Positions 13,305 through 32,769 of a stretch of DNA of 49,000 nucleotides are shown in pieces. Source of the stretch: Thraustochytrium aureum (Eukaryota); NCBI GenBank assembly GCA_012862495.1, contig BLSG01000421.1, positions 85,191 through 134,190 of the forward strand, written 5' to 3'. Position 1 is the stretch's first letter. Every line of letters begins with the position of its first letter. Position numbers and translations under genes: made by a program. The notes beneath the pieces are model-generated. The model was not told the DNA's origin. It did not search any database and saw only the letters and a list, made by a program, of their open reading frames with translations.

Positions 13305-14303
13305 NNNNNNNNNNNNNNNNNNNNNNNNNNNNNNNNNNNNNNNNNNNNNNNNNNNNNNNNNNNNNNNNNNNNNNNNNNNNNNNNNNNNNNNNNNNNNNNN
13401 NNNNNNNNNNNNNNNNNNNNNNNNNNNNNNNNNNNNNNNNNNNNNNNNNNNNNNNNNNNNNNNNNNNNNNNNNNNNNNNNNNNNNNNNNNNNNNNNNNNN
13501 NNNNNNNNNNNNNNNNNNNNNNNNNNNNNNNNNNNNNNNNNNNNNNNNNNNNNNNNNNNNNNNNNNNNNNNNNNNNNNNNNNNNNNNNNNNNNNNNNNNN
13601 NNNNNNNNNNNNNNNNNNNNNNNNNNNNNNNNNNNNNNNNNNNNNNNNNNNNNNNNNNNNNNNNNNNNNNNNNNNNNNNNNNNNNNNNNNNNNNNNNNNN
13701 NNNNNNNNNNNNNNNNNNNNNNNNNNNNNNNNNNNNNNNNNNNNNNNNNNNNNNNNNNNNNNNNNNNNNNNNNNNNNNNNNNNNNNNNNNNNNNNNNNNN
13801 NNNNNNNNNNNNNNNNNNNNNNNNNNNNNNNNNNNNNNNNNNNNNNNNNNNNNNNNNNNNNNNNNNNNNNNNNNNNNNNNNNNNNNNGCCGCTAAACATC
13901 TGTTGCCGCCTCACCTTGCCTCAGCTTTCATAAATAGAGGGTCACGTTCCTCTATTATATGCGGTGTATTATATTTTGCATGGGGCAGGGTAATATAGAG
14001 GGCCATGCGCGCTGGTGCCAACAGGACGGGCAGACGAACGCGCGCACGTGCATGAGGAAGGAAGGAGGCCGCGCGGGAGCGGGAGGCAGACCCCGAACGG
14101 ACGAGCGAACGGACGGGCGGACGAGCGGACAGCTCAAGCGACGGAGGAAGGCAGCGCGCGGGGCAGGTCCGGCCAGGAGCGCGGGGCCGGCCGGCCAGGA
14201 ACGCTCGTGCAGAGCAGGTCCGCGCCGCACCGCCGGCAGGCAAACGACGCACCTTGCGCGCGGGCCTGACTGGGCAGCGGCGGCGGGCGCGCTGGGAGGC
14301 AGC

Positions 14304-17219
14304 ATGATGTGGGCGCTGCTGACGCCGGTGCAGAAGCTCGCCGCTCTGTGCGTTGCGATGGCGAGGGCGCAGGTGCGAAGCGCGCTGTGGCTGAGCGGGC
14401 TCCAGGCGAGCGACTTTGCGTTCCCAGAGCGGATGGTGGAGTGGAACCTGGCGGTGGACCTGGCAGCGAGAGCGGCGTCGTATGTGGCGCGGATGGTCAA
14501 GGTCATTTTCTACCCGCACCTGCTGTTCCGCAACGTGCTGTTCGCGATTTTGTTTCAGGGCGTGTACGAGGGAGGCGGCCTCGCCTGGCGCAACATGCGC
14601 GAGCGCCTCTCGCAGCTCACCGCAACTGGGCGCAAGCGCGCCGCACTGCGCGAAGCCATGGAGTCAGCCGAGAGCTACCTGGACTTTCGCACCGCCGAGA
14701 AGTCGTTCCAGGCTGAGCTCGGCTCCGCCAAGGTCGCACTCAACGTAGAAGAGCGAGCCATCTGCGACCAGCTAGACAGGCGATTCAAGCGCTATCGCAA
14801 CTTTATCCGCAATAACGACGCGCGCCGACTGCAGTTCGAGTTGCGCAGCGACCTCATACGCAAGCACTTTGGCCACGAACAAACGCACCCCTGCGTGAGG
14901 GCCTCCATCCAGCGCTACGTCGGCATTGTATGCTGCGCGTTCGGGCTGCTAGCGTCGGGGTCGGTGCCGACGCCACTCCGCGACCTCGTGTTTGAGGACA
15001 CCGAGGAAGAGACGCACGACGTCGCCGAGTCGCTTGACAAGTTTGACCACGGCCAGGCCTCGATGCGGCACTCTCCGAGCCTCGTCGAGATGCCCGACCT
15101 CGGGTCAGGCGACGAGGCGGATGAAGACGAGACGGGCGACGACGCGGAGTACAACGGGGATGGCTTCCAACCCGGCCCCGAGCAAAGCGGCCGCGGCCTT
15201 CGCTCCAGCAGCAATGGGTCGTTCTCTAGCCGGATGCCGCACCTGGGCTCCACTCCAGAGGAAAAGCTTCAGCTGGCTCGGTCGCGGCTTGACTTTTTTG
15301 CCGAGACTCGCCACTCGTTCGGGCGCTCCGCGTTGCTGCTGTCTGGCGGGGCGCGAATGGGCCTGTACCACGTCGGGGTCGTCAAGACGCTGATGGACCA
15401 CAACTTGCTGCCGCGCGTGATATCGGGCAGCTCGGCAGGCTCCATCATTGCGGCGGTCCTGGGGTGCAGAACCGACGAGGAGATTCGCGAGCAGCTCTTC
15501 GACCCGGCCAACATGAACCTGCGCTTCTTCGGGCGGTCCGACTCGATCGACTCTGGGCTGCAGTCCCTCTTGAAAGGCGAGGCCCTCCCCGACTACGTCA
15601 AGGAATCCTTGATGGCCGCCTTCACAGGAGAGGAGGGCGAGAAGGGCGGGAACAAGCTCTTCGGCACCATGCTCATGCTCCTGCCGCCACCCTTCCCCTC
15701 TTACATCATGCTCCTCAAAAAGCTCTTGCCGCGCTGGTACGAGAGCAAGGTGCTGCTCGATATCAACGTGCTCAAGACGGCGATCCGGAACGTGGTCGGC
15801 GACATGACCTTCCAGGAGGCCTTCGACAGGACGGGCCGCATCATCAACATCACCGCCACGCCGCATGGCGGCGATCGCGACGTGCCCAACCTGATGAACT
15901 ACCTCTCGGCCCCGTATGTAACCCGTGTGGAGTGCCGCCTGCGCCTCGTGCTGCATCCCAGGCGTCTTTGCGCCCGTCACGCTGATGGCCAAGACCATCG
16001 ACGGCACGCTCGAGCCGTACAACCCGGCCGGCCTGCGCTGGATCGACGGCTCGCTCGAGTCGGACCTCCCCATGCAGCGCTTGGGCGAGCTTTTCAACAT
16101 CAACCACTTTATCGTGAGCCAGGTCAACCCGCACGCGCAGATCCTGGCGCCGCACGATCACACGGAGCTTGAGAATATGCCTTACTGGGACCGGAAGTTT
16201 CTCGGCGCGCTAGGCCGCGCTGTGCGCTTTTGCCGGGACCAAGGCCGCAGCTACCTCAAGCACGTCTCCGCGTTCGGCCTCAAGTCGACGCTGCTCAGCC
16301 CGCTCGGCGTGGGCCTCGTGCCAGTCCTGACGCAAAAGTACGGCGGCGATATCACGCTCTACCCCAAGATGACTGCTGCGGACCTCAGCAAGCTTTTGCA
16401 AAACCCGACGGACGAGGAATACCTGCAATGCATCCTCGGAGGCGAGCGCATGACCTGGCCAAAGCTGCAATCCATCAGGCGTCGATGCATGGTAGAGTTT
16501 ATGCTCGACGACTGCGTGCATGCAATGCAGGCGCAGATCACCTCGCTCGAGCGCCAGAGGCGCGGCCCGCGGCTTGGCGGCGCCTTTCCGCGGTCTACGC
16601 ACCTTTCGCCGCCGCTGCAGCAGTTCCACAAGCAGCCGGGCATGAGCCGCGTGTCCTCATACACGGTCTTCGGGGGCGGTAGCGGCCAGGCAGGGATGCC
16701 AGGGGGTCCTTGAATAGCGCTTCTATCCAGAACGACATGGAGGACCTCAAGGCGCGAGGCCACAGGCCAAGCCCGCTTGGCCTCCAGCCGCGGGCGTTCC
16801 CTCCGCTCGCCTCCCAGCAGCTGCACCAGGGTCCGCACGGCTCGCCTCAGTCCACTTCGGACGGCTCGGTGGACCTGGACGTCTCCGAGTCGCCGCTCCA
16901 CCCCAAGTTCAAGCGCGCGCTGCCGACGCATGGCGCCTTGGGGCGCGAGTCTGCTGGCCGTGCGAGCCGCTCGGACACCGAGGAGATGCTTACGTCCAAG
17001 CTCATGGGCCGGATCCAGTCGGTCCAAGCGCTTTCCTCGCTCGCCGACCTCCCGGACTCGGCAAATGGCCACGCCGCACACCAGGCTGGCGGCTTTGAGC
17101 CCCCGTTCCCAGACTATGAACTCGAGGAGGAGGACGGCGAGGCGGAGGACTCTGATGCAGGCAGCCGCTCGCATGGCCGGCGAAGCGGTACTAGCTCGCC
17201 CCGCGCGGGCGCCAGGTAG
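14304..17219 (+). CDS. Patatin-domain triacylglycerol lipase (TGL3/4/5, SDP1-like); frameshifts at about 15921 and 16702
   Basis: RHSFGRSALLLSGGARMGLYHVGVV, ISGSSAG (GxSxG), TFQEAFDRTGRIINIT, NYLSAPYVT(V)WSAACAS, WIDGSLESDLP and FNINHFIVSQVNPH. Confidence 0.92.
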
Positions 17220-17984: not shown

Positions 17985-20900
17985 ATGTTAGGGCCAAGGA
18001 TGCCACAGGGCTCGGGGCCCGGACGGGAAAAGGCGGCGCAGCACTCGATCAAGGTTGTCATTCGCGAGNNNNNNNNNNNNNNNNNNNNNNNNNNNNNNNN
18101 NNNNNNNNNNNNNNNNNNNNNNNNNNNNNNNNNNNNNNNNNNNNNNNNNNNNNNNNNNNNNNNNNNNNNNNNNNNNNNNNNNNNNNNNNNNNNNNNNNNN
18201 NNNNNNNNNNNNNNNNNNNNNNNNNNNNNNNNNGTCATTCGCGAGCTGCAAAGCCCAACGTCAGCAGCAAGCCCCGATTGCAGGGAGCCGGCCACGAGCC
18301 TCTTGGCGCCGCCCATCGCAACCGACGCGCGAAGCGACGCTCCGTCTGCGCAAGTCGCCAAGCAACTGGCTGCCCACCAAGCGGACGAGGAGGTTCCACC
18401 AACGAACCTCGCAGGGGATTTGCAGCGCCCCACGCCGAGGAGGGATCCTCAGCTGGCGCCGCACCGCTTGGCTTTGGTCAGGGCAGAGTGCGGCGCCAGA
18501 GTGGAGTTCGTCCGACAAGCCAGCAGCGGACTCTCCGACCTGGCTTCAGCGAGGCAGCGCCCAAGCACTGCGCGACGCGCAGAGCAGCGCGATGGCGCGC
18601 AGAGCGCTCGCGACGCACCTACATCGCTTGAGCGGTTCCAGACCTACTCAGAGGAGGAGCGCGCGCCGATTGTTGAGCGATTTGGGACTGGCCGCAAGCA
18701 GTATCGAACCCCAGCCGGACAGCAGAGCAAACCCCCGAGCAACCAGGAACCCGAGTGCGATGGGCTCGACTACGAGCACGTTCTGGAAGCAGGGGAGCGG
18801 CGCGCAACGCGCGCCCTTTCGCAGTCGTGCTCGCCACGCCGGCCAGCAAGCGCGGCAGAGGCGAGGTCACGCAAGGCCAACGAGCACAGGCACAAGTTGG
18901 TCTTGCAGGCAGCCGCACTCGCCTACAAGCACCAGATCGCGCACCCGCAAGCCGGCGAGCAAAAGCTCGGCTATCAGCTTAAGGCCGAGCGGCGCGCCGC
19001 GCTCGACGCGGAGCATTCTGCGAAAGGGCGCACCAAAACGCTGATGCGCGTCCTTGGCGAACGAGACGAGCGCAGCGAGGACTCTGCGGCTGTGAACTCG
19101 CTAGCGTTTGGGTGGGACGCCGGGACGCCGAGTCGGCCCGGGATCGGCCTGGGAAGCAAAACCGTCTGGGACGGCGTCGCGAACCACATGAGTCTCTCTG
19201 GCTTGCTGAGTGCGACGGGCGGGCGGCCCTGCGCCTTGCCCAACCAGGCTTCAGCAAAGGCGGCGTTCCAGCTTTTGGAGGACGCAAGCGAGGCTACGCC
19301 GGACGAGCTCTTGCGAAGCTCACTGCGCGCCGCTCATCGCGTTTTGCACTCTGCGGTGTACAGCTCGTGCGACGACGTGACTCTGCACGACTCAAACAGC
19401 GCGGAGGCCGTCCTCGACCCTGCGCGGTCCAGCCAACGCACGTTTTGGGAGGACAAGCAGCACCTCGAGGAGCAGAAACGCGCATTAGAGGCCCGCGTAG
19501 ACTCCCTCGAGCGCGAGCTCGCAGCAGAACGGGCGCAGCGTTGCGCATCCATCGTGCCGGCGGCCGACGAGCGGCCAAGCGACGCGGTCGAGGAGGCGTT
19601 CGCGGCGCTTGCCAAAGCATCACGCGAAACCGGGTTCGAGTCGGTCACAGGGCTCGTGGTTGAGATGATCTCGCGCCAGCTCGTGCCGATTGACGCGGAC
19701 GTGTGGGTTGGCATGTTTCACACTCTGCGCGCAGGCGAGCGCGACGCAGCAGACCGGCCACGCACGAGCGAGGCGCTCAGGTGTCTCCTCGCGTCGAGTG
19801 TGGCAACCGACGAGCGGGACGCGGAGCTCGCGCTCGCCGCTTTGTTTGAGCGCGATGATATTGTGCAGGCTGCTCGATGGCTGATGGAGACCCACCCCTT
19901 GCACGAAACGACGCTGCTTCTCACGTCGCGCACGATGGGGCAGCAGGTTGCATTTTGGGAGGTTCACTGGCGATCCTTGTTCGATGTGATGTGGACTTCT
20001 GCCGACCTAGTCAGCAAGCTGGTCGCGAATCGGCAGGACCTGATGGGCAGGCTACTGCTGAGGTACTCGGCCTGGCTGGGCTTCGGAGCCAGCGCTCGGC
20101 GGCTCTCGCCCGAGCACCTTGGCGCGCTCGAGACGCTGCTGGACCAAGTGGTGGAGCGGCACGTCCCTTTCCTCGAGGGGGCCTTGGTCAAGAACCGCCA
20201 AGTGCTCCGCGACGTGCTTGAGTCGGAGAGATACGGCCAAGACCTCATCGCCTCGCTGGCAGAAACGAGCCCGATCACAGTTGGGAGCATGCTGGACCAG
20301 AGCAAGCCGATCCTGGCCAAGCTACTGCGCAAGCGCGCCGCGTTGCTGAGTTCGCTTGTCTGTGAAACCCCCGCTCTGCTGTCGGCGCTGGCGCATGCAA
20401 ATATTCAAGGCTTTGCGCTGGCGCTCGCAGAGGACAAAAGCGTTCTTGTCGCGGCCTGCACGCGGGTTCCGCAGCTCGTCGACCACCTGGTTGGCAGCAG
20501 CCCCAGCACCGTGGCTGCGTCGGTATCAGACAGCGCGAACGCCATCGCGGCTGTCCTGGAGCGTGCCATGGACGACACCTTGGAGAACGAGGTGCTTGCA
20601 GTGCACCAGGGGCTCTTGCTGAAGAATGACGGCCGTCTCGCGAGGCTCGGGCTGGTCAACACGGCGACCTACAGGAGCCGCTGCGCCACATCGCAGGTGC
20701 AGACCGACCCGATCCAGAGCACGGGCCACGGAGAGATCGTGGCTCGTCCGCTCCTTGATATCGTCGGCAAACGGCGGCTCGCCAAGGTCGCCTCGGCAGC
20801 CTGGACCACGGAGACCATGCACGAGACAATCGCCCTCATCTACGCCGCCAAAGTCCAGGCGGATGTGATTGACGACCGAGCGGGGCATCCTCGCGAGCCT

Positions 20901-22412
20901 TTCCCAGAGGTCGTGCACGACTACTTCGTCGAGCAGATGCCTGATGTGGCCACGGCCAAGAAGGCCTTGGCGCCTTGTGTGCGGTGCGAGCGANNNNNNN
21001 NNNNNNNNNNNNNNNNNNNNNNNNNNNNNNNNNNNNNNNNNNNNNNNNNNNNNNNNNNNNNNNNNNNNNNNNNNNNNNNNNNNNNNNNNNNNNNNNNNNN
21101 NNNNNNNNNNNNNNNNNNNNNNNNNNNNNNNNNNNNNNNNNNNNNNNNNNNNNNNNNNNNNNNNNNNNNNNNNNNNNNNNNNNNNNNNNNNNNNNNNNNN
21201 NNNNNNNNNNNNNNNNNNNNNNNNNNNNNNNNNNNNNNNNNNNNNNNNNNNNNNNNNNNNNNNNNNNNNNNNNNNNNNNNNNNNNNNNNNNNNNNNNNNN
21301 TGCGCGCTCGTCCCGCCGAGAGCGTTGCGGAGTGCTTGAGCGAAGAGGGGGGCGAAACGGTCGTGCCCCTCAAGCACGCTGTTGAGCACGTATCGACGAT
21401 TGCAACCATGTACTGGTACGATGAGTGGTCGCGGCGGCAAGTCCTCGACCGCGTTCGCGCCTTGGAGACCTTTGAGGTACTCGAGGACTGCTTTCAAGGC
21501 GACTTTGAGGAGCGCAAGGTCTGGGCCAAGGTCGACCCGGTGGAACTTGGTCTGGCAGAGGACACTGACTTTTTGCCTGCGGGCGAGGGCGGGGTCGACC
21601 GCGAGAACGGGCAGTCGGCAGTGCACGGCGACGATTCGGACGATTTTGGGCCATTCACGAGGTCGCCAGAGTCAAGCCCGCGCAGCCGCAAGCGAAGCGG
21701 GTCGGCGTCTTCTTCGACGAAAGGGCAAAGCCAAGGCCAGGCCAAGACCGAGGGCGGCGCCGGCGCGGCGGCAGCGTCTGTTGTCGGCGCGGGGCGGCCA
21801 ACGGGGCGCAAAGGCCAGACGCAGTTTCGGCAGGTTGTGAAAACCCGCTTGCTCAAGAAGGATCGCCTTGCAAACGAGATTGTGTCCCTCTTGGGTCAAA
21901 AAAAGGCGCAGGACCGCACGAATCGGGCGCGCTCCTCGGCGATGGCGGCCGCATCGCTGCTCGGTGCGTCGCGCCGTCGGACTTCGCAAAGGCGACCCGA
22001 GTCAAGTGCACCGTGCCTCGTTCTGCAGCATGTTCTGGATGTCGTGATGGAGGAGTGGCTCTTGTTTGAGGAGACAGAGGTTGACACGCTCACCGAGTTG
22101 TTTGTGCAGGGCGACTCGGATGGGAACGGAATCCTGGACTTTGGCGAATTCAAGACGATGGTGACAATCGTTGATCCCCACTGCGATGTTCGCACGGTGC
22201 ACCGCATGTTCAAGATGACAGGTGAGGAGACGGAGGACGGCGAACATGTGATCAGCCCGAGTGAGTTTGTTCAGGTGATGCGCGCGCATCGGTACACTGG
22301 GCCTGCGCTTGCGCACCTCATCCAGGGCAAGCATCGCGGACCAGGAGAAAGCGGATCGCACGAGGACCAGGTGGGGCAAGCCGAGCCGCCAGAGGAAGAA
22401 GCAAATAAATAG
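17985..22412 (+). CDS. Large coiled-coil / helical-repeat / EF-hand protein (TSNAXIP1-like, probably ciliary); start uncertain, two internal gaps
   Basis: Long open frame; coiled coil (KQHLEEQKRALEARVDSLERELAAE); IALIYAAKVQADVIDDRAGHPREPFPEVVHDYF block as in TSNAXIP1-like proteins; canonical EF-hand DSDGNGILDFGE near 22113-22148. Confidence 0.65.
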   Translation: MLGPRMPQGSGPGREKAAQHSIKVVIREXXXXXXXXXXXXXXXXXXXXXXXXXXXXXXXXXXXXXXXXXXXXXXXXXXXXXXXVIRELQSPTSAASPDCREPATSLLAPPIATDARSDAPSAQVAKQLAAHQADEEVPPTNLAGDLQRPTPRRDPQLAPHRLALVRAECGARVEFVRQASSGLSDLASARQRPSTARRAEQRDGAQSARDAPTSLERFQTYSEEERAPIVERFGTGRKQYRTPAGQQSKPPSNQEPECDGLDYEHVLEAGERRATRALSQSCSPRRPASAAEARSRKANEHRHKLVLQAAALAYKHQIAHPQAGEQKLGYQLKAERRAALDAEHSAKGRTKTLMRVLGERDERSEDSAAVNSLAFGWDAGTPSRPGIGLGSKTVWDGVANHMSLSGLLSATGGRPCALPNQASAKAAFQLLEDASEATPDELLRSSLRAAHRVLHSAVYSSCDDVTLHDSNSAEAVLDPARSSQRTFWEDKQHLEEQKRALEARVDSLERELAAERAQRCASIVPAADERPSDAVEEAFAALAKASRETGFESVTGLVVEMISRQLVPIDADVWVGMFHTLRAGERDAADRPRTSEALRCLLASSVATDERDAELALAALFERDDIVQAARWLMETHPLHETTLLLTSRTMGQQVAFWEVHWRSLFDVMWTSADLVSKLVANRQDLMGRLLLRYSAWLGFGASARRLSPEHLGALETLLDQVVERHVPFLEGALVKNRQVLRDVLESERYGQDLIASLAETSPITVGSMLDQSKPILAKLLRKRAALLSSLVCETPALLSALAHANIQGFALALAEDKSVLVAACTRVPQLVDHLVGSSPSTVAASVSDSANAIAAVLERAMDDTLENEVLAVHQGLLLKNDGRLARLGLVNTATYRSRCATSQVQTDPIQSTGHGEIVARPLLDIVGKRRLAKVASAAWTTETMHETIALIYAAKVQADVIDDRAGHPREPFPEVVHDYFVEQMPDVATAKKALAPCVRCERXXXXXXXXXXXXXXXXXXXXXXXXXXXXXXXXXXXXXXXXXXXXXXXXXXXXXXXXXXXXXXXXXXXXXXXXXXXXXXXXXXXXXXXXXXXXXXXXXXXXXXXRARPAESVAECLSEEGGETVVPLKHAVEHVSTIATMYWYDEWSRRQVLDRVRALETFEVLEDCFQGDFEERKVWAKVDPVELGLAEDTDFLPAGEGGVDRENGQSAVHGDDSDDFGPFTRSPESSPRSRKRSGSASSSTKGQSQGQAKTEGGAGAAAASVVGAGRPTGRKGQTQFRQVVKTRLLKKDRLANEIVSLLGQKKAQDRTNRARSSAMAAASLLGASRRRTSQRRPESSAPCLVLQHVLDVVMEEWLLFEETEVDTLTELFVQGDSDGNGILDFGEFKTMVTIVDPHCDVRTVHRMFKMTGEETEDGEHVISPSEFVQVMRAHRYTGPALAHLIQGKHRGPGESGSHEDQVGQAEPPEEEANK

Positions 22413-22566: not shown

Positions 22567-24010
22567 TCAGAGTCCTACGTTTGCTGTGATGCGCCAAAAG
22601 TTGAAGGAGCTGTAGTTGTCGATGGACTGGCACACGCTCGGCGGGAAAGCAAAGTCGACCACCTCCGAGATGTCCACGCAAAACGAAAAGTACGAGCGCT
22701 CGCCAACCAAGACACCGTCCGCCTTTGAACCGAACGACGACCGAGGCGCCCCGCCGCGGCCGATGTCCGAAGCTGGGCTATCAGCTTGATCGGCTGCTGC
22801 ATGGGGCGGGCCCTGCGACGAGCTCTTGAGCGGGAACCGGCGCCCCGCCGGGATCCCGACCGCCTGAAATACCGCCAAGTCGGACGCGGTGTTGCCAAAG
22901 CCCGCAAACATGGGAGCCGCAGCGTCCTGCGCGAACAGGCTCTGCGCCTCGTGGGCACAGTGGAGGAAAAAGCGGCTGCGCGCGGCGCGGCTCGAAAGTG
23001 GGAGCCCCGTCCTGGCGTGCACCTGGTGCGGGCAGAAAATCACAGGCCCNNNNNNNNNNNNNNNNNNNNNNNNNNNNNNNNNNNNNNNNNNNNNNNNNNN
23101 NNNNNNNNNNNNNNNNNNNNNNNNNNNNNNNNNNNNNNNNNNNNNNNNNNNNNNNNNNNNNNNNNNNNNNNNNNNNNNNNNNNNNNNNNNNNNNNNNNNN
23201 NNNNNNNNNNNNNNNNNNNNNNNNNNNNNNNNNNNNNNNNNNNNNNNNNNNNNNNNNNNNNNNNNNNNNNNNNNNNNNNNNNNNNNNNNNNNNNNNNNNN
23301 NNNNNNNNNNNNNNNNNNNNNNNNNNNNNNNNNNNNNNNNNNNNNNNNNNNNNNNNNNNNNNNNNNNNNNNNNNNNNNNNNNNNNNNNNNNNNNNNNNNN
23401 NNNNNNNNNNNNNNNNNNNNNNNNNNNNNNNNNNNNNNNNNNNNNNNNNNNNNNNNNNNNNNNNNNNNNNNNNNNNNNNNNNNNNNNNNNGCGGTCCGGC
23501 TGACTGAGCGTTCCTCCTGGCTAGTGCCGCGTGTCGGGGGTCTGGCTCTGCTAACTCGGTCTGGAGCTCGGCAGAGAGCTGGCTGTCAAAGGAGCAGGAC
23601 GAGAAGGACGAGAGGCTCTCCGCATCGTCATCGTGGGCGGACCTTGGGCTCAAGCCCTCGCGCAGCATCGCCACAAGGAGGTCCTCGCCGCTGGCGCTTG
23701 CAGCTTGGCCCGGCGGCTCCTCGTCGCTGTCGCCGCACATCGTGTCAATAAAGGCCGGAAACATGGCCCGCCACCCGGCGTCGAGCTCCATCCCCAGCCC
23801 GTCCACGTCGCTTCCGTTGCAGGAAACCGCGACCCTGCTGTTGGCCTCTGCCTCTTTGGAGGCGAGAAACTGGACGTGGAACGGGGTGCTCCGCATCACC
23901 CCGTCTCTCGTACGGACCACGACGACATCGTTCGCGCAGCCCTCCGTGGAGTCGCCGCGATAGTATTTGCCCAGCACGCCGCGCAGGGCTTCGGTCACGG
24001 CGTTCATCAT
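22567..24010 (-). CDS. Lipin / phosphatidate phosphatase PAH1-like (catalytic DxDxT region falls in the gap)
   Basis: N-LIP domain (NDVVVVRTRDGVMRSTPFHVQF), C-LIP/LNS2 motif (FAGFGNTASDLAVFQAVGIP) and terminal YSSFNFWR. Confidence 0.88.
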
Positions 24011-24020
24011 CTTCTTGAAA

Positions 24021-24043
24021 ACAACAACAACAACAACAACAAC
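24021..24043. repeat. (CAA)n microsatellite just upstream of the lipin start
   Basis: acaacaacaacaacaacaacaac. Confidence 0.9.
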
Positions 24044-24158
24044 GAGGCCAGTCCGGGCCCAGAAAGCTCTCTCTTCGCCCCTGCGCGTTCGCTGCGCGTT
24101 GTTCGCGACGCCCCGCGCTCTGCTCTGACCACGCTCGCAGCCAGCACTGGCCGGGTCG

Positions 24159-24188
24159 CGATCGATCGATCGATCGATTGACCGATCG
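24159..24188. repeat. (GATC)n palindromic microsatellite in the lipin upstream region
   Basis: cgatcgatcgatcgatcgattgaccgatcg. Confidence 0.8.
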
Positions 24189-24996
24189 CGTTGGCGATCG
24201 GGTTTGGCGCGCGGTGCTTCAATCAATCCACGTCCGAGATGATCGACCATGAGGAGTAGAAAAAGCAGGTTACTGGCTGAAGCCCTGCGTCGTGGCCTGC
24301 GTCACAAGTCCAGTCTCATCGCCGGCGTTCCTCTCACCCCTGGTCGCCTCTCGCATCGAATCCTGGCGGTCGCGGGCTGGGCCTGCGCACACCCGCTCGC
24401 CCATTTCCTGACTCACTCTGTCCAGATAGAGAGCGAGCGAGCCCGCGGCGTGAATGGGCAGAGCCGGGACCGGGGTAACGCTCGCAGGCAGGCTCGCACG
24501 GTAGGTAGGCTCGCACGGTAAGAAACGCGCCAGGGCGTTGTCGGCTCCAACTCGAAGACGCGCTTGGCTGCAGCGGCGCGCTTGCTCGATTGGAGGAGGG
24601 AGGAGGGCGGCTCGAGCTTACTTTCTCTGGCAGGGACGTGGCTGCATGCTCAAGTGCTTGCTTGCATCTCGGGCTACATTCAGGCGCGGAGGAGACCCCG
24701 CTGATGCGCGGGAAGGGGAGGGTTTGTGGCGGCGCGCGCTTCCGGCCTAAAGGCGCGGCACGCCGGTTGAAGGCTGTTGGCGAGTTTTGGGCGGGGATGG
24801 ACGCAGTGGAGGGACTTTCTCTGCCGGCTCGTGAGATTCCGGAAATATTCACGATCACAGAGGAGGCGCTGATAAATAATTTTTTGTTTTTTGTTGCGAT
24901 GAGAGCGTCTCGAAGGAGATGGTCAATCGGAAGTGGACGCGCGTCACCTTGAGACGTAGTGCGGTTTCATTCCTCAACCCGATCCAAGCGAATCCA

Positions 24997-25038: not shown

Positions 25039-26048
25039 TCACCCTACTGCAGCGCAGACGCACGCACGCTGCACGCTGCCGTCACGCAAGCACGCTGTTA
25101 TCACGCAGGGGTACCTAACTGGATGCGCGCGCAGGCTGCAGGCCGGCCCCCTCGAACGAACGAACGCGCCGCTCCTCCTACCTGCGTGGGTGCCCCAAGT
25201 CACCGAAGCCGGCACCTGCTCTTAGGAGTACTCAGGAGTAGGTAGGTACCTACTCTTTGGAGTGCTCGGTCCCAAGCACAAAAAGCACATGACCCTCTAT
25301 TTGTACAACNNNNNNNNNNNNNNNNNNNNNNNNNNNNNNNNNNNNNNNNNNNNNNNNNNNNNNNNNNNNNNNNNNNNNNNNNNNNNNNNNNNNNNNNNNN
25401 NNNNNNNNNNNNNNNNNNNNNNNNNNNNNNNNNNNNNNNNNNNNNNNNNNNNNNNNNNNNNNNNNNNNNNNNNNNNNNNNNNNNNNNNNNNNNNNNNNNN
25501 NNNNNNNNNNNNNNNNNNNNNNNNNNNNNNNNNNNNNNNNNNNNNNNNNNNNNNNNNNNNNNNNNNNNNNNNNNNNNNNNNNNNNNNNNNNNNNNNNNNN
25601 NNNNNNNNNNNNNNNNNNNNNNNNNNNNNNNNNNNNNNNNNNNNNNNNNNNNNNNNNNNNNNNNNNNNNNNNNNNNNNNNNNNNNNNNNNNNNNNNNNNN
25701 NNNNNNNNNNNNNNNNNNNNNNNNNNNNNNNNNNNNNNNNNNNNNNNNNNNNNNNNNNNNNNNNNNNNNNNNNNNNNNNNNNNNNNNNNNNNNNNNNNNN
25801 NNNNNNNNNNNNNNNNNNNNNNNNNNNNNNNNNNNNNNNNNNNNNNNNNNNNNNNNNNNNNNNNNNNNNNNNNNNNNNNNNNNNNNNNNNNNNNNNNNNN
25901 NNNNNNNNNNNNNNNNNNNNNNNNNNNNNNNNNNNNNNNCGCAACGGTAACTTGATAGGCGCCAAGGTGCGAACGGCAGGCAACGGCAGTGTTACGCACG
26001 CACGGACGAGCAGAAGACCATCCAAGCGAGGCAGGCAGCAGCAGCGGA

Positions 26049-26087
<39 letters not shown>

Positions 26088-26088
26088 C
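26049..26088. repeat. (GCAG)n microsatellite upstream of NCKX
   Basis: About 9 perfect GGCA units. Confidence 0.9.
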
Positions 26089-26309
26089 TAGGCGCTGCAA
26101 GCCGCGCGGCCAGTCGTGGCGGCTTGAGCCTCGCGCGCCCCCCGCGACTGCATTCTCGGTGGGTTGCCGGGAAACCACCCTCAGGCCCGCAAGTGCCAAA
26201 GCAGCGAGGACAGCGCGACGGAGGCTGGACGCGCCACATCGTCGAAAACGGAAAGAAAGCGCGAACGGCTGCTGGCCGGAGCTGAGCCCAGTGTGGCGTG
26301 CCCTCAAAG

Positions 26310-27853
26310 ATGGGCGCCACTGACAGGGCCGTTGGGCCGGAACGCAGCAACGCCCCGCGGCTGAGGACCCGAGACGCCAAGACGAGCAAAAGCCTCGCGG
26401 CCGGCTCAAACACGGCGTGGATTGCAAAGCGCAAGGCCAGAAGGTGCCAAAACCGGAGGTTTAACCGCAAGAGCATGCTCAAGGTCCAGTTCTTCATGTT
26501 CCTGGCCATGTGCGCCTACGTCATGCTCCCTGACCACATGGGCGCCGTTGGGCTCGACTTTGTTTTCGGACCTGCTGAAAACAGCGCGTTCCGAAGAGCT
26601 CTGCAGACGATGGTACTCGATGAAACCGAAAGGGCGCTCGAGGACGAGAGCGTCTCAAAAGAATTCCCACCAGACTTGTTCACTTTGGAGCAGCGCCGAG
26701 GTGGAGCCATCGTCCTTCACATCTTCGCGATTTTCTACATGTTCATCGGCCTTGCAGTCGTGTGCGACGAGTACTTTGAAAGCTCGTTGGAGGCGATCTG
26801 CGCGGACCTCAACCTCAAGGAGGACGTGGCAGGCGCCACCTTCATGGCTGCAGGGGGCTCTGCGCCCGAGCTGTTCAGCTCACTTATCGGCGTGTTCGTC
26901 GCCAAGAGCGACATTGGCTTTGGCACCATCGTGGGGTCTGCAACGTTCAACGTGCTTTTCGTGATCGCAATGTGCGCCTTCATCACAAACAACCTGGTCC
27001 TGAGTTGGTGGCCGCTGACTCGCGACTGCGTCTTTTACTGCATTTCCATCGTCGCTCTTGTCGGCTGCGTGGTCGACCAACAGGTCGTGTGGTGGCAGGC
27101 TCTCATCTTGCTCATCCTCTACGCAATCTACATCACAATCATGTACTACAACGCGGACCTCGAGGTTTGGGTGGGGCGAAAACTAGACCTTGCAGCTGTG
27201 CCCCGCACTGGCTGGCGACTCCAGGTCGAGCGGGCGCTTCAATCCAGCTCATTCACTTTCTTCATCTATGCCGTCATCATTGCGAATTTGGTGGCCATCA
27301 TCTGGGAGGCGACGGACTCCGCGCCGGCGTCCACCTTCGACGCGCTCAATACAGCGTTTTCTTTCGTGTTCATCGCTGAGATGCTCGTGAAGATCATCGT
27401 CTTGACCTTCTTCGGCTACTGGCACGACCCCGTCAACGCCTTTGACGGCACGCTCGTTTGCCTCATCCTCATCGAGTGGTTTCTTTCTTCGAGCAAGGTT
27501 ACTGGCGGTCTGCGAGGGCTCAAGTTCCTCCGCATGCTCCGGGCGCTCCGCGTTTTCAAGCTGTATGTGGCGTCAGCGGTCAAGAAGGTCGACAAGTGCA
27601 CACAAACTGCGGAGGTCGACTGGGGCATGCTCGCCGAGGCAGAGAAGAGCGGGAGCCTCCGAGGAATTGAAGACGCTCCACTCACACAGGCGACCCAGCC
27701 CACGTCGCGCTCTTCGGCCTCGGTGGCGCCCATGCCTGTCGAGAAAAGCGCGCAGGACAGTGTTGCAGCGAAGTCGGAAGGTGCCCCTCTCATTGCCGAG
27801 CGCGTTCGATCTGTCCAAGATGACCAGGAGGTGGACGAAAAGAAGGACAAGGA
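26310..27853 (+). CDS. K+-dependent Na+/Ca2+ exchanger (NCKX/SLC24-like) with an inserted voltage-sensor domain; C-terminal alpha-2 half presumably in gap 27854-28486
   Basis: FPPDLFTLEQRRGGAIVLH...LAVVCDEYF, alpha-1 repeat EDVAGATFMAAGGSAPELF, DIGFGTIVGSATFN and WWPLTRD are NCKX hallmarks. They are followed in frame by S1-S4 helices with S4 LRGLKFLRMLRALRVFKL. Confidence 0.9.
27252..27563 (+). other. Voltage-sensor domain (S1-S4, Ion_trans N-terminal part) inside NCKX
   Basis: S1 FTFFIYAVIIANLVAII; S2 FDALNTAFSFVFIAEMLVKII (FxxExxxK); S2-S3 GYWHDPVNAFD; S4 with R/K at every third residue, six times. No S5-P-S6 follows. Confidence 0.88.
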
Positions 27854-28893
27854 ANNNNNNNNNNNNNNNNNNNNNNNNNNNNNNNNNNNNNNNNNNNNNN
27901 NNNNNNNNNNNNNNNNNNNNNNNNNNNNNNNNNNNNNNNNNNNNNNNNNNNNNNNNNNNNNNNNNNNNNNNNNNNNNNNNNNNNNNNNNNNNNNNNNNNN
28001 NNNNNNNNNNNNNNNNNNNNNNNNNNNNNNNNNNNNNNNNNNNNNNNNNNNNNNNNNNNNNNNNNNNNNNNNNNNNNNNNNNNNNNNNNNNNNNNNNNNN
28101 NNNNNNNNNNNNNNNNNNNNNNNNNNNNNNNNNNNNNNNNNNNNNNNNNNNNNNNNNNNNNNNNNNNNNNNNNNNNNNNNNNNNNNNNNNNNNNNNNNNN
28201 NNNNNNNNNNNNNNNNNNNNNNNNNNNNNNNNNNNNNNNNNNNNNNNNNNNNNNNNNNNNNNNNNNNNNNNNNNNNNNNNNNNNNNNNNNNNNNNNNNNN
28301 NNNNNNNNNNNNNNNNNNNNNNNNNNNNNNNNNNNNNNNNNNNNNNNNNNNNNNNNNNNNNNNNNNNNNNNNNNNNNNNNNNNNNNNNNNNNNNNNNNNN
28401 NNNNNNNNNNNNNNNNNNNNNNNNNNNNNNNNNNNNNNNNNNNNNNNNNNNNNNNNNNNNNNNNNNNNNNNNNNNNNNNNNNNNNNAGAGAGAGAGAGAC
28501 TGGATGGTCGACTGGTTTGACTTTGCCGAACAGGGTGGCAAGTCAGCCACAAGCCGTCCCGGGACGCGCATGCCGCGACCCTCGACCTACCTGTGTGACC
28601 TAGTTATGTGCCAGCTCCACGACTAGCGCTGTCGGCGTTAAAGGTGGCGGTGCCTCGGTGTTTGTCGCCGAGCTTGCCTCGACCTGTGCGTGGCCTTGCG
28701 GAGTGTGACAAGATCAAACAAATTTCACTGTTCCTTTTTCGTTCGACACTAGGCACCGCACGGATTGATTCACCAAGGCGCTGCTCTGCCTCATTAGTCG
28801 AGTAGGTTCTCTGCCGCACAAGTCGAGGGTTCTCCGCAAAGGGAGCGTCTCCCTCCCTGACTGCAGCTCACTGCCCGTCCCGCGACTGACTGT

Positions 28894-29587
28894 CTACCTA
28901 TTGGCAAGCGCCACTTCGGCCTTGGACTCCAGCTGCCTCGAGTACTCGTCCAGCTGGTCGCACGCCCGCTCAAGGTCTAGCACCGCCCGGAAGAGACCGT
29001 CGATCTCCTCAACGGCCGGCCGCATTTCCTCGACTGCGAACCACGCAGCACCGCATCGAGCCTCGCTCTGCCGTCAGCCAACACGAGCCCGTCCACCGCG
29101 TCGCCGACAAGCCAGGCGCGCCTCAAGCAGACAAGTAGATAGGAACTGCGCCAAACGAAGAGCAACAAGCGCGACTTACACTTGCGAAACAGGTCAGCCC
29201 TGAACGAGCCAAGGCCCTCCACGACCGAGGCGAGCTCCTCAAACTTGGCCGCCGAGACGCGGTTCATTTCGTCGAGGCACTGGAGCTCGCTGAGAGCGCC
29301 CTCCGCCTCAGCTCTCGCGTACTCGTTGACCGCGCCGAGCAACCTGTCGACCTCGGCCTAACCAACGACGTCAATGCCCCATTCATCAGCGCGCCCGACC
29401 TCGAGCCCACTTACATCAAGCCTGCCGTGCGCTTCTCCGCGATCATGCAGCGCCTCCTGGGCCGCCGTGGCCTGCAGCTGCGCCGAACGGGCAGCGCGTC
29501 CATGCCCAGCTGCACAATCTTGCGGAAAAGGCCTCCAACCCCGCCGCGCTCGCCACCAGAAGCGTCGCTCCCGCGTGGCGGCTCCAT
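28894..29587 (-). CDS. BLOC1S2: BLOC-1 subunit 2 (BLOS2), with two introns (29358-29414 and 29034-29179); start tentative
   Basis: The spliced product AEVDRLLGAVNEYARAEAEGALSELQCLDEMNRVSAAKFEEL...RK|FEEMRPAVEEIDGL...LERACDQLDEYSRQLESK matches the BLOS2 pattern. Both introns have GTAAGT donors. The start at 29587 requires one frameshift. Confidence 0.8.
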
Positions 29588-29796
29588 GGGCCCTGCGCGC
29601 CGTGCCTGCGTCCCGACGCCGCCGTGCCGCGGGCTGGCGAGGAGGCCGGGAGCGGGATCGAGTCTGGCTGGCGCCATCTTGCGTGTCACATGGCGCAGAT
29701 CCTCCTCGCGCCCGGGCCGGCGCAGCGCGCCGATCCCTCTCGCGCGGCTCCGGCCGTGTGTCGCGGCGGAAGGTCCGCGGATCGCGCGGCCGGAAG

Positions 29797-32769
29797 ATGC
29801 TCGCGGTCGGCCACGACGTGCGCGTTGCCTGCGTGGGCGAGGAGGAGGACGGGGAGGACGGCGGCGTCGTGCTGCGATGCTTCCGCGCGCCGCTCGAGCT
29901 CGAAGCAAACGCCAGCGGCCGCGGCGCGGCCAGCAGGGCCAGCGAGGGCGCTCCGGCAGAGGCTCGCGAGCAGCGCGTGCTCCGCTGGACCGTGAGGCGC
30001 ACGCCAGCAGAGGTCCGCGGGTTTGCGGGAAACGCACTCCGCGTCGTGCCAACGTTGAACTTGAAGCGTGGTGGCCTTGACGAACGCNNNNNNNNNNNNN
30101 NNNNNNNNNNNNNNNNNNNNNNNNNNNNNNNNNNNNNNNNNNNNNNNNNNNNNNNNNNNNNNNNNNNNNNNNNNNNNNNNNNNNNNNNNNNNNNNNNNNN
30201 NNNNNNNNNNNNNNNNNNNNNNNNNNNNNNNNNNNNNNNNNNNNNNNNNNNNNNNNNNNNNNNNNNNNNNNNNNNNNNNNNNNNNNNNNNNNNNNNNNNN
30301 NNNNNNNNNNNNNNNNNNNNNNNNNNNNNNNNNNNNNNNNNNNNNNNNNNNNNNNNNNNNNNNNNNNNNNNNNNNNNNNNNNNNNNNNNNNNNNNNNNNN
30401 NNNNNNNNNNNNNNNNNNNNNNNNNNNNNNNNNNNNNNNNNNNNNNNNNNNNNNNNNNNNNNNNNNNNNNNNNNNNNNNNNNNNNNNNNNNNNNNNNNNN
30501 NNNNNNNNNNNNNNNNNNNNNNNNNNNNNNNNNNNNNNNNNNNNNNNNNNNNNNNNNNNNNNNNNNNNNNNNNNNNNNNNNNNNNNNNNNNNNNNNNNNN
30601 NNNNNNNNNNNNNNNNNNNNNNNNNNNNNNNNNNNNNNNNNNNNNNNNNNNNNNNNNNNNNNNNNNNNNNNNNNNNNNNNNNNNNNNNNNNNNNNNNNNN
30701 NNNNNNNNNNNNNNNNNNNNNNNNNNNNNNNNNNNNNNNNNNNNNNNNNNNNNNNNNNNNNNNNNNNCTTTCTATTCGACCACCGGACGCGGGCCAGACC
30801 CGGCCTGCACCCGCACAGCCTTACCGTGACCAACGCTGATCGCACCCTGACGCTGCACACCAGCTCGCGCGCAGAGCGGGCCCGCTGGCTCAACGCGCTC
30901 AGAAGAGTTTTGAGTGGCAGCACCGTTCGCGGCAGCGGGGCGCCAGATTCTCACTCCGACGGCTTTTTCAGCCCCCAGCGCCGGGACATTCCTGCGCAGT
31001 GGTACGCGTCCGCGCGATTCTACTATCGTGACCTTTACGAGGCCCTTCGCCGTGCCCGTCACGAGATCTTTATTGCTGGTTGGATGATCTCACCGGAGCT
31101 TCGTCTTGTGCGAGACGAACCTGACATCGACCCAGCGTCTTCGGCTTTGGAGGCAGTCCTCGGAGACGCGGTTCGTCGTGGGGTTCGTGTTCATGTTCTC
31201 CTCTATCGAGACGTCGAGATTGCGCTGCCGAACAACTCGCGCCATGCCAAGGCGCGCCTGATGGCCCAGGGCGTCCAGATTATCCGACACGCCGCGCAAG
31301 GGCGGGCGATTACGGCCCAGAACCACCTGTTTGGGCTGTCGGCGGGCGACACGTGGTGGTCCCATCATGAAAAGGTGGTCGTGGTCGACCAGCGCATCGC
31401 CTTCGTGGGCGGAATCGACCTCGCGTTCGGCAGGTACGACGACCACCGCCACAACCTCACCGACCCGCGCTCCGAGATCTGGCCTGGCAAGGACTACTAC
31501 AACGTTCGCGTCAAGGAGTTTGAGCACCTGGAGGACCCAGATGCCGACTTAGTCGACCGCCGGAAGGAGGCGCGCATGCCCTGGCAGGACATACACTGCT
31601 GCGTTGGCGGCGCGGCAGCGCGCGATGCGGCGCACCACTTTATCGCGCGGTGGAACCGGGAGCTCCACCAGCTCCTCTCCTTCCAGCGTTCGGCCAAATC
31701 GTCCTACCACTACCTCCTCCCGGCCGAGTACGACGACGCTGGTCCGCTATGCGCGCTGCTTCCGTATCGCTGCTCGTCGGTGCAGCTTCTGCGGTCCGTC
31801 GGCCCGTGGTCGCTATCCTCCGCCGTCGAACGCTCGGTCAAAGCGCGCTACCTGCAGCTCATCGCCGCGGCGCAGCGTTTCATCTACATCGAGAATCAGT
31901 TCTTCAACTCGTCCGAGGTCGCAGACGCCCTCGCGGACCGCCTCGAGCGCGCTGTCGACGAAGGCCAGTTCGGCCAGCTTCGCGCGATAGTCGTCCTGCC
32001 GCAATGGCCCGCCTTCGAGGGCCTTCCTATCGACAATGCAGCAGCAAAGATAGTCCTGCATTTTCAGCACAGTGTAATCGACCGCGTCGTTCGCCGTCTC
32101 GAGCGCGTTTGCGGGCCAGACCGGCCTGTGGACCAACTCATCTCGTTTTGCTCGCTCCGCAAGGCCGAGTTTCTGCACGGCGGGCTCGTCTCCGAGCAGG
32201 TCTACGTGCACAGCAAGCTGCTTATCGTCGACGACGTCTGCATCATTGGGAGCGCAAACCTCAACCAGCGCAGCCTCAACGGGGACCGCGACTCGGAGGT
32301 GTGCGTGTGTATCACGGACAACCGCTTCGTTCATGACCTGGGCGCGGCGCTTTTCATCGAGCACCTCGGTCTCCACGACGACCGTCGCTGCGCGGGTTGT
32401 CGCCTCTGCTCGCTCAAGCGACGAGATCCCCGCAGCACGCTCGATGGAGCGATGGTTGAGAGGGTCACCGGACGGTCGGGCTGGAAATTGTGGGACCGCA
32501 CGGCGGCCGAAAACGCTGCCGTTCTCGAGGAGCTTTTCCCAGGCATGCAGCCGAGCGACGCGATCACAGACGTGTCCGCTGCGAGGCTGGCGCTCTCTGT
32601 GGCGCAGGTGCCACCGCCCATGGCGGATCACTCTGTTCTCACCATGGTAAAGCGGTTGCGCGGGACCGTTGTCCGCACGCCCTTGCGTTTCCTTCGCGAC
32701 GAGGCCACGATGCTGCCATCGCTTGCCGACCCGGCTATGTTCGTTCTCCCCGTCGACAACTTTGTCTGA
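29797..32769 (+). CDS. Phospholipase D (PH-containing, PLD1/PLD-zeta type); internal gap
   Basis: PH-domain end (RTLTLHTSSRAERARWLNAL), IFIAGWMISPE, HKD1 WSHHEKVVVVD, RMPWQDIH, FIYIENQFF and HKD2 VYVHSKLLIVDD...IIGSANLNQRSL..RDSEV. Confidence 0.93.
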   Translation: MLAVGHDVRVACVGEEEDGEDGGVVLRCFRAPLELEANASGRGAASRASEGAPAEAREQRVLRWTVRRTPAEVRGFAGNALRVVPTLNLKRGGLDERXXXXXXXXXXXXXXXXXXXXXXXXXXXXXXXXXXXXXXXXXXXXXXXXXXXXXXXXXXXXXXXXXXXXXXXXXXXXXXXXXXXXXXXXXXXXXXXXXXXXXXXXXXXXXXXXXXXXXXXXXXXXXXXXXXXXXXXXXXXXXXXXXXXXXXXXXXXXXXXXXXXXXXXXXXXXXXXXXXXXXXXXXXXXXXXXXXXXXXXXXXXXXXXXXXXXXXXXXXXXXXXXXXXFLFDHRTRARPGLHPHSLTVTNADRTLTLHTSSRAERARWLNALRRVLSGSTVRGSGAPDSHSDGFFSPQRRDIPAQWYASARFYYRDLYEALRRARHEIFIAGWMISPELRLVRDEPDIDPASSALEAVLGDAVRRGVRVHVLLYRDVEIALPNNSRHAKARLMAQGVQIIRHAAQGRAITAQNHLFGLSAGDTWWSHHEKVVVVDQRIAFVGGIDLAFGRYDDHRHNLTDPRSEIWPGKDYYNVRVKEFEHLEDPDADLVDRRKEARMPWQDIHCCVGGAAARDAAHHFIARWNRELHQLLSFQRSAKSSYHYLLPAEYDDAGPLCALLPYRCSSVQLLRSVGPWSLSSAVERSVKARYLQLIAAAQRFIYIENQFFNSSEVADALADRLERAVDEGQFGQLRAIVVLPQWPAFEGLPIDNAAAKIVLHFQHSVIDRVVRRLERVCGPDRPVDQLISFCSLRKAEFLHGGLVSEQVYVHSKLLIVDDVCIIGSANLNQRSLNGDRDSEVCVCITDNRFVHDLGAALFIEHLGLHDDRRCAGCRLCSLKRRDPRSTLDGAMVERVTGRSGWKLWDRTAAENAAVLEELFPGMQPSDAITDVSAARLALSVAQVPPPMADHSVLTMVKRLRGTVVRTPLRFLRDEATMLPSLADPAMFVLPVDNFV

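Follow-up and report, generated by a model that had tools for sequence, protein, structure and literature searches.

A voltage-sensor domain within an NCKX-type exchanger of Thraustochytrium aureum and its protist relatives: candidate voltage-gated Ca2+ exchangers

The window analysed here, a 49,000-nucleotide stretch of Thraustochytrium aureum contig BLSG01000421.1, contains a reading frame that begins as an NCKX-type Na+/Ca2+-K+ exchanger and continues into a voltage-sensor domain (VSD) of the kind found in ion channels. We asked whether these two parts belong to one protein and what a voltage sensor could do in a Ca2+ exchanger. Judged from sequence and structure models, an intact Cav/Nav-type sensor has been inserted after TM5 of an NCKX-type exchanger, and S4 movement likely switches exchange; we give this reading a probability of about 60%.

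One reading frame, two modules and an assembly gap

The features of the gene are as follows.

26310..27854, plus strand: open reading frame up to the assembly gap (515 codons; predicted full length about 739 amino acids)
26478..26525, plus strand: N-terminal hydrophobic helix, residues 57-72, at the signal peptide/TM0 position of NCKX (sequence; model helix 53-71; homologs have a helix at the same position)
26661..27152, plus strand: NCKX N-terminal half, TM1-TM5, residues 118-281 (Pfam Na_Ca_ex; 60% mean pairwise identity in the family)
26832..26876, plus strand: alpha-1 repeat, with Glu187 (26868-26870) as the equivalent of NCKX2 E188 (alignment to residue 188 of frog NCKX2, P0074)
27153..27245, plus strand: two-helix cytoplasmic linker between TM5 and S1 (helices 281-295 and 302-310), the second a channel-type pre-S1 helix (the Cav structural match begins at 297)
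about 27246..27578, plus strand: VSD, S1-S4, with N326, E333, N347, F354, E357, D379, E389 and six S4 charges at 402-417 (Pfam, alignment, model)
27591..27614, plus strand: putative LC8/DYNLL-type linear motif (D-4 K-3 T-1 Q0 T+1), 14 residues past the last S4 charge (alignment, consensus)
27615..27854, plus strand: short helix, then a low-complexity cytoplasmic loop with an acidic run at the gap (sequence, model; 20% mean family identity)
27855..28486, plus strand: assembly gap of 632 N; presumed content TM6-TM10, including the alpha-2 repeat, and stop codon

From the ATG at 26310 the frame is free of stops up to the last sequenced base and then enters the gap. The single uninterrupted reading frame described in an earlier note on this DNA was confirmed, with its end at 27854 instead of 27853. 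Within the frame, 17 positions vary (11 silent, 6 residue-changing, none creating a stop). A GGCA-type short tandem repeat lies 5′ of the start codon, at 26041-26095.

An assembly chimera or a mis-prediction, with the sensor contributed by a neighbouring channel gene or spliced out of the transcript, would be suggested by the gappy, low-depth assembly and by the position of the C-terminal half in a gap. Against it, both domains share one frame in 66 of the 120 longer homologs listed and in 31 of 80 metagenome loci, 27 of which hold all three parts. The named carriers Mucochytrium quahogii (57% identity), Keelungia sp. and Petalomonas cantuscygni have transcript-style identifiers, so the sensor is present in the mRNA of these three genera; we take Mucochytrium to be a labyrinthulomycete and the other two to be euglenids. 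At the locus itself, the TM5-S1 junction is crossed by a contig from run X1 (26955-27594), which may itself be the source sample of the assembly, and by one from run X2 (27060-27440), a separate study with strain differences. A chimera or a spliced-out sensor, which the earlier note had named among the outcomes that would refute it, is thereby refuted for the family and is barely credible for this gene.

The alpha-2 half of the T. aureum gene lies outside the sequenced part of the window, and we infer that it sits inside the gap at 27855-28486, together with the stop codon, because a terminal Cys codon and stop, an in-frame length and the lengths of homologs all fit. An 849-base contig from run X2 reaches both flanks of the gap, with a left overlap of only 24 letters (bridge threshold 31). 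In both X1 and X2 a loose end of 30 letters encodes Cys followed by a stop, 22 bases before 28487. If the X2 contig begins with those 24 letters, the 675 implied coding bases are whole codons, which give 224 residues and a total of 739. The five nearest relatives have 723-833 residues, and four of them end in Cys. Close homologs have Cys as the last residue or near the end, and 265-303 residues follow their post-S4 motif, compared with 306 implied here. A search for a gap-derived protein fragment with the C-terminal half of P0002 as query returned relatives at no more than 63% identity and no recognisable piece of the window gene.

The exchanger part was identified by Pfam as Na_Ca_ex (residues 138-279, E 2e-27). 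Two such stretches occur in all seven full-length members scanned, which also display the predicted order Na_Ca_ex, Ion_trans S1-S4, Na_Ca_ex. The K+ dependence of NCKX resides in D575. The alpha-1 Glu is kept in 67 of 67 members, and the D548 and D575 equivalents of the alpha-2 repeat are each kept in 65 of 66 full-length homologs, the region being the gap in the window copy; E188, D548 and D575 are ion-site residues of NCKX2, with D575 given as a cation-site residue in the accessible text of PMC12150658. A full-length model of the homolog P0004 has the CaCA fold with 5+5 TM helices and matches NCLX, NCX_Mj and NCX1. By its predicted sites and modelled fold the window protein is thus an NCKX that departs from the family in one defining feature, a wholly cytoplasmic central loop: four TM helices lie in that loop, which makes it a variant and not a canonical NCKX. 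Just N-terminal of the alpha-1 core, Trp replaces Phe in 23 of 67 members.

The surroundings of the gene are listed for orientation; by position alone, several lipid-signalling genes lie near it.

13959-16172, plus strand: patatin-like lipase gene, neighbour
17985-22412, plus strand: gapped ORF of 1475 codons whose sole Pfam match is a weak EF-hand at the C-terminus
22781-24250, minus strand: lipin N-terminal domain gene, neighbour
28977-29357, minus strand: BLOC1S2-like fragment, neighbour
29374-32769, plus strand: phospholipase D gene, neighbour
47113-48762, minus strand: gene with a CEP76 peptidase-like domain (Pfam)

The voltage sensor and the segment behind S4

Residues 313-419 match Pfam Ion_trans at profile positions 2-109 of 241 only, corresponding to S1-S4 without a pore (E 2e-17). 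The earlier note had placed the sensor at 27252-27563; the location holds and the extent is slightly wider. Its quoted motifs, FIAEMLVK in S2, NAFD in S3 and six S4 charges, are all present, with every third S4 position charged. AlphaFold2 placed helices at 313-334, 340-372, 374-394 and 405-423; pLDDT is mostly 88-97 for S1-S3 and 68-79 for the region of S4. Residues 297-421 of this model superpose on the Cav1.2 sensor (Z 15.4, rmsd 1.9 Å, 117 residues). The best sequence match is Cav3.2 (E 9e-25, summed over repeats), and among solved chains the T-type Cav3 channels come closest by sequence; sensors of Cav3/Cav1/Nav-type channels are the likely donor class. S5, pore loop and S6 were sought behind S4: in every member scanned the Ion_trans match breaks off between profile positions 108 and 116 of 241, and residues 428-515 have no pore-like Pfam match and are modelled mostly at low confidence, in agreement with the low-complexity loop reported before. 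An AAA-lid match in the loop of the window protein was weak and below its cut-off, and was disregarded.

The residues expected of a working sensor are conserved across 67 members: N326 in 66, N347, E357 and D379 in all 67, F354 as Phe in 62 and Tyr in 5, and E389 as Glu in 64 and Asp in 3. In SLC9C1, the residues N691, E698, N736, Y743, E746 and D767 of the working sensor, which have the same spacing as those of NCKX-VSD, hold S4, as described in the accessible text of PMC13095418. In 65 of 67 members every third S4 position is charged, with 6-10 charges in all. Mean identity is 54-60% in the exchanger halves, 40-46% in the sensor and 20-22% in linker and loop. Taken together, the sequences suggest that both modules look intact, in sensor chemistry as well as in exchanger ion sites. 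It is improbable that the domain survives merely as a structural, oligomerisation or trafficking module that has lost voltage sensing. The sensor does evolve about 1.75 times faster than the exchanger, and the charge run is interrupted in 2 of 67 members, as such a role would allow; a scaffold, however, would have no need for the features that are conserved, namely countercharges, aromatic plug and a charge at every third residue.

Conduction of protons or other ions by the sensor itself, as in Hv1 or as an omega current that feeds or balances the exchanger, is very improbable. RxWRxxR in S4 is a signature of Hv1; this string is absent from S4 of the window protein and occurs in 3 of 67 members (P0010, P0012 and P0017), which have it despite Asn instead of Asp in S1. 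The sensor lacks a pore, and currents through the sensors of SLC9C1 and CatSper3 in isolation are described in the accessible part of PMC10651576. The mid-S1 Asp needed for proton selectivity of Hv1 (PMC13095418, as far as accessible) is found in none of the 67 members, 66 of which have Asn and one Ser, and the Hv1-like conduction considered in the earlier note is accordingly unlikely. An omega current usually requires a gap in the charges (PMC10651576, accessible part), and 65 of 67 members have a long run without interruption. For these counts the mid-S1 position was assigned by the spacing that it has to the outer S1 Glu in the Hv1 sequence.

How the sensor is mounted on the exchanger was assessed from models. 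The TM5-S1 linker, formed by two helices predicted with good confidence, has 27-35 residues in 51 of 52 members. For full-length P0004 the model pTM is 0.75, compared with rough estimates of 0.55-0.65 for a free sensor and 0.69-0.78 for a sensor placed on the core; for the window protein it is 0.61, compared with a rough free-sensor bound of at most 0.47. These bounds are rough assumptions judged without PAE. ESM Atlas models of two members agree (TM 0.77 over 615 residues). Because the pTM values of P0004 and of the window protein exceed the free-sensor bounds, the sensor appears to be held in a set position on the core.

Behind S4 the members diverge into a variable, low-complexity loop of 35-253 residues before TM6, and at its start we found a post-S4 TQT that is a candidate LC8-type motif by its sequence and is new with this analysis. 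In 36 of 67 members TQ[TVW] lies no more than 25 residues behind S4, whereas shuffling each loop 500 times gives an expectation of 0.35; in 31 of the 36 it stands 14 residues past the last aligned S4 charge. None of 13 full-length VSD-less exchangers in the same alignment has it. Motif carriers have Asp at -4 in 29 of 41 cases, Asp or Glu at +2 in 17 of 41 and Ala at -3 in 25 of 41, where the window protein has Lys. LC8 binds two chains and would therefore link a pair of S4 tails, the role that a coiled coil has in Hv1. The LC8 consensus is given as [D/S]-K-X-[T/V/I]-Q-[T/V]-[D/E] (PMC3078936, PMC6607443, accessible text), and Ala at -3 is less favourable for LC8 (PMC6607443, likewise). The preferences of the carriers at -4 and +2 agree with this consensus. 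Five of the six specified positions match in the window protein, which has Ala at +2 and Glu at +3, and its motif segment (426-434) is disordered in the model (pLDDT <50).

Of the 67 members, 26 lack the motif, among them a whole subfamily of 18 (P0039, P0043, P0046, P0048-50, P0052, P0056-59, P0062-67 and P0083; clade support 99). In many of these 18, S1 and S2 are separated by an extracellular insert that contains Cys, and P0008 has a far longer Cys-rich insert at the same place. The insert is possibly a ligand- or redox-sensing add-on.

Distribution and history of the fusion

A profile search with clustering at 50% identity recovered the sensor in 30 of 150 proteins listed, comprising 17 of 134 new proteins and 13 of 16 already seen. 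An ESM Atlas cluster has 71 members, all of them eukaryotic, with Haptophyta as the commonest phylum among the 20 with a record. Aureococcus anophagefferens is represented by a cluster member that comprises N-terminal half and sensor. The earlier note, which proposed a search of stramenopile proteomes, underestimated the range, since several protist supergroups carry the fusion. The VSD was found in prokaryotic genomes at 0 of 80 loci (80 of 163 relatives kept), and none of 23 pattern matches on viral contigs was a relative. One locus, L081, has a eukaryote-like NCKX N-terminal half (52% identity, E 3e-60) and no sensor, on a contig labelled as a bacterial MAG; it may represent contamination or transfer.

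To reconstruct the history of the sensor, a FastTree phylogeny was computed from exchanger columns only, with 256 rows reduced to 174 by dropping proteins without either half and near-copies above 80% identity (P0001 is absent). In this tree 47 of the 52 sensor-bearing rows, together with two sensor-less rows, form one clade (support 98), and five VSD members fall outside it with weak support, giving four label changes. An 80-row tree has three label changes and does not reject a single VSD clade (AU p 0.265); in it the window protein forms a group with four further proteins and that of Mucochytrium (support 98). The trees of the two modules are congruent: the VSD tree recovers 12 of 16 strong exchanger splits, none of its own 6 strong splits conflicts, and the pairwise distances of the two parts are correlated (Mantel rho 0.51, p 0.001). 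Because the insertion point is fixed, the trees agree and the sensors have common family-specific motifs, one old insertion followed by later losses is the simplest reading of these sequences.

The two sensor-less rows, P0160 and P0396, are complete exchangers nested in the main VSD clade that have lost the sensor. Because their ion sites are intact, the exchanger can evidently exist without it. In NCX structures TM1 and TM6 form the gate, and TM1 bears a Glu at its inner end (E157 in the window protein) in 85% of 52 sensor-bearing exchangers compared with 0% of 120 others; this residue is a candidate contact of the sensor on this gate. Because P0160 and P0396 retain this Glu, it may reflect mere ancestry rather than contact.

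Proposed working and comparison with known systems

In the proposed mechanism, the core would exchange 4 Na+ for 1 Ca2+ and 1 K+ in the manner of NCKX, and the sensor, packed on the core through the two-helix TM5-S1 linker, would move with voltage. The cytoplasmic extension of S4 would then press on or release the cytoplasmic ends of the TM1/TM6 gate; an LC8 dimer bound to the TQT motif probably ties this extension to that of another copy, an arrangement that would give S4 something to pull against. Exchange would be blocked on depolarisation and released on repolarisation, a polarity that we favour only slightly over its opposite, by analogy with SLC9C1 (PMC10620092, accessible text). A Ca2+ spike could thus build before it is cleared, and reverse-mode entry would be avoided at high internal Na+. 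With seawater assumed outside, the computed reversal potential is +45 to +240 mV at 10-30 mM internal Na+ and -25 to +61 mV at 60 mM; at these values a block on depolarisation would let the spike build and would prevent reverse entry under Na+ load.

Several observations count against gating by S4. A structured cytoplasmic domain is lacking, S4 reaches TM6 only through the variable loop, and the nested sensor losses point to an exchanger that can do without its sensor; the absence of the motif from 26 members and the frequent Ala at -3 weaken the LC8 step. In a rather unlikely alternative, the sensor moves but signals outward, through an LC8-binding tail or a partner, or only fine-tunes a self-sufficient exchanger. 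The long floppy S4-TM6 loop fits such a role, the nested sensor losses fit an exchanger that is independent of its sensor, and TMEM266 is a precedent, its sensor being functional although no effector is known for it (PMC13095418, accessible text). The fixed length of the TM5-S1 linker, the history common to sensor and core and the fixed position of the sensor in the models argue against it and leave S4-switched exchange as the preferred reading. A wider proposal is more tentative, and we lean slightly against it as a whole: an ancient and widespread protist family of voltage-gated Ca2+ exchangers, with a Cav-like sensor between the CaCA halves and an LC8 dimer clamping two S4 tails, from whose sensor-bearing ancestors animal NCKX could even descend.

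If S4 does switch exchange, this would be a second voltage-gated transporter on an unrelated fold, and electromechanical gating of carriers would have evolved more than once. It would also provide, at about 730 residues and without a CNBD, a far more compact system for studying S4 control of alternating access, in which transport is electrogenic, as in NCKX, and natural sensor-less relatives exist. For abundant haptophytes, pelagophytes, labyrinthulomycetes and euglenids, it would mean a voltage-controlled off-switch for Ca2+ signalling.

SLC9C1 is called the only known VSD-regulated transporter in the accessible text of PMC10620092. The VSD reviews PMC13095418 and PMC10651576 name, in their accessible parts, channels, SLC9C1, VSP, Hv1, TMEM266 and a cyclase fusion, and no Ca2+ exchanger. 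A CaCA survey that includes Emiliania and Aureococcus mentions, as far as its text is accessible, only variable TM counts (PMC3355786), and its TM-count Table S3 may include such proteins unnamed; the accessible parts of PMC12223298 and PMC2784329 contain no description of NCKX-VSD. Databases already carry automatic labels for both domains. The NCKX-VSD fusion is real, conserved and apparently undescribed in the literature searched, which lay mostly outside subscription journals and supplements; the novelty supposed in the earlier note stands within that scope.

The protein is not a member of SLC9C, not an Hv1 and not a channel. With SLC9C1 it has in common a secondary transporter joined to a pore-less S1-S4 and a matching, equally spaced set of polar and aromatic residues in S1-S3. 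The hosts differ, with an NhaA fold of 13 TM helices there and a CaCA fold of 10 here, and so does the substrate; the SLC9C1 sensor follows the transporter, whereas that of NCKX-VSD lies between the two halves, in the central loop. S4 movement is transmitted by helices and a CNBD in SLC9C1, whereas NCKX-VSD has a short S4 extension with an LC8-type motif. An NhaA-fold module or CNBD was sought with Pfam in full-length members, which yielded only Na_Ca_ex and Ion_trans. Because the host folds are unrelated, the two fusions originated independently, as had been supposed.

Full-length members have the TM0 + 5 TM + loop + 5 TM plan of SLC24/NCKX, both alpha repeats and the E188/D548/D575 equivalents, and the window protein is predicted to follow this plan; identity to animal NCKX over the N-terminal half is about 50-58%. 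The family differs in the four extra helices of the VSD in the loop and in its separate branch of the family tree. The sensor of the window protein is closest to Cav3.2 by sequence and to Cav1.2 by fold, and unlike the sensors of Cav3, Cav1 and Nav channels it is a single copy without S4-S5 linker, S5, pore loop or S6. Hv1 and TMEM266 resemble it as pore-less sensors with a possible dimerising element behind S4; the NCKX-VSD sensor is instead fused into a transporter, with Asn in place of the S1 Asp, 6-10 S4 charges and a linear LC8-type motif in place of a coiled coil.

P0112, P0113 and many hits of the search with the C-terminal half of P0002 are protist NCKX proteins with EF-hands in the central loop. 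EF-CAX, these EF-hand NCKX proteins and NCX with its Ca2+-binding domains likewise carry a regulatory module there (PMC3355786, accessible text), and the NCKX central loop appears to be a place where one regulatory module can be swapped for another. The EF-hand modules of CaCA proteins are soluble and read Ca2+, whereas that of NCKX-VSD is embedded in the membrane and would read voltage.
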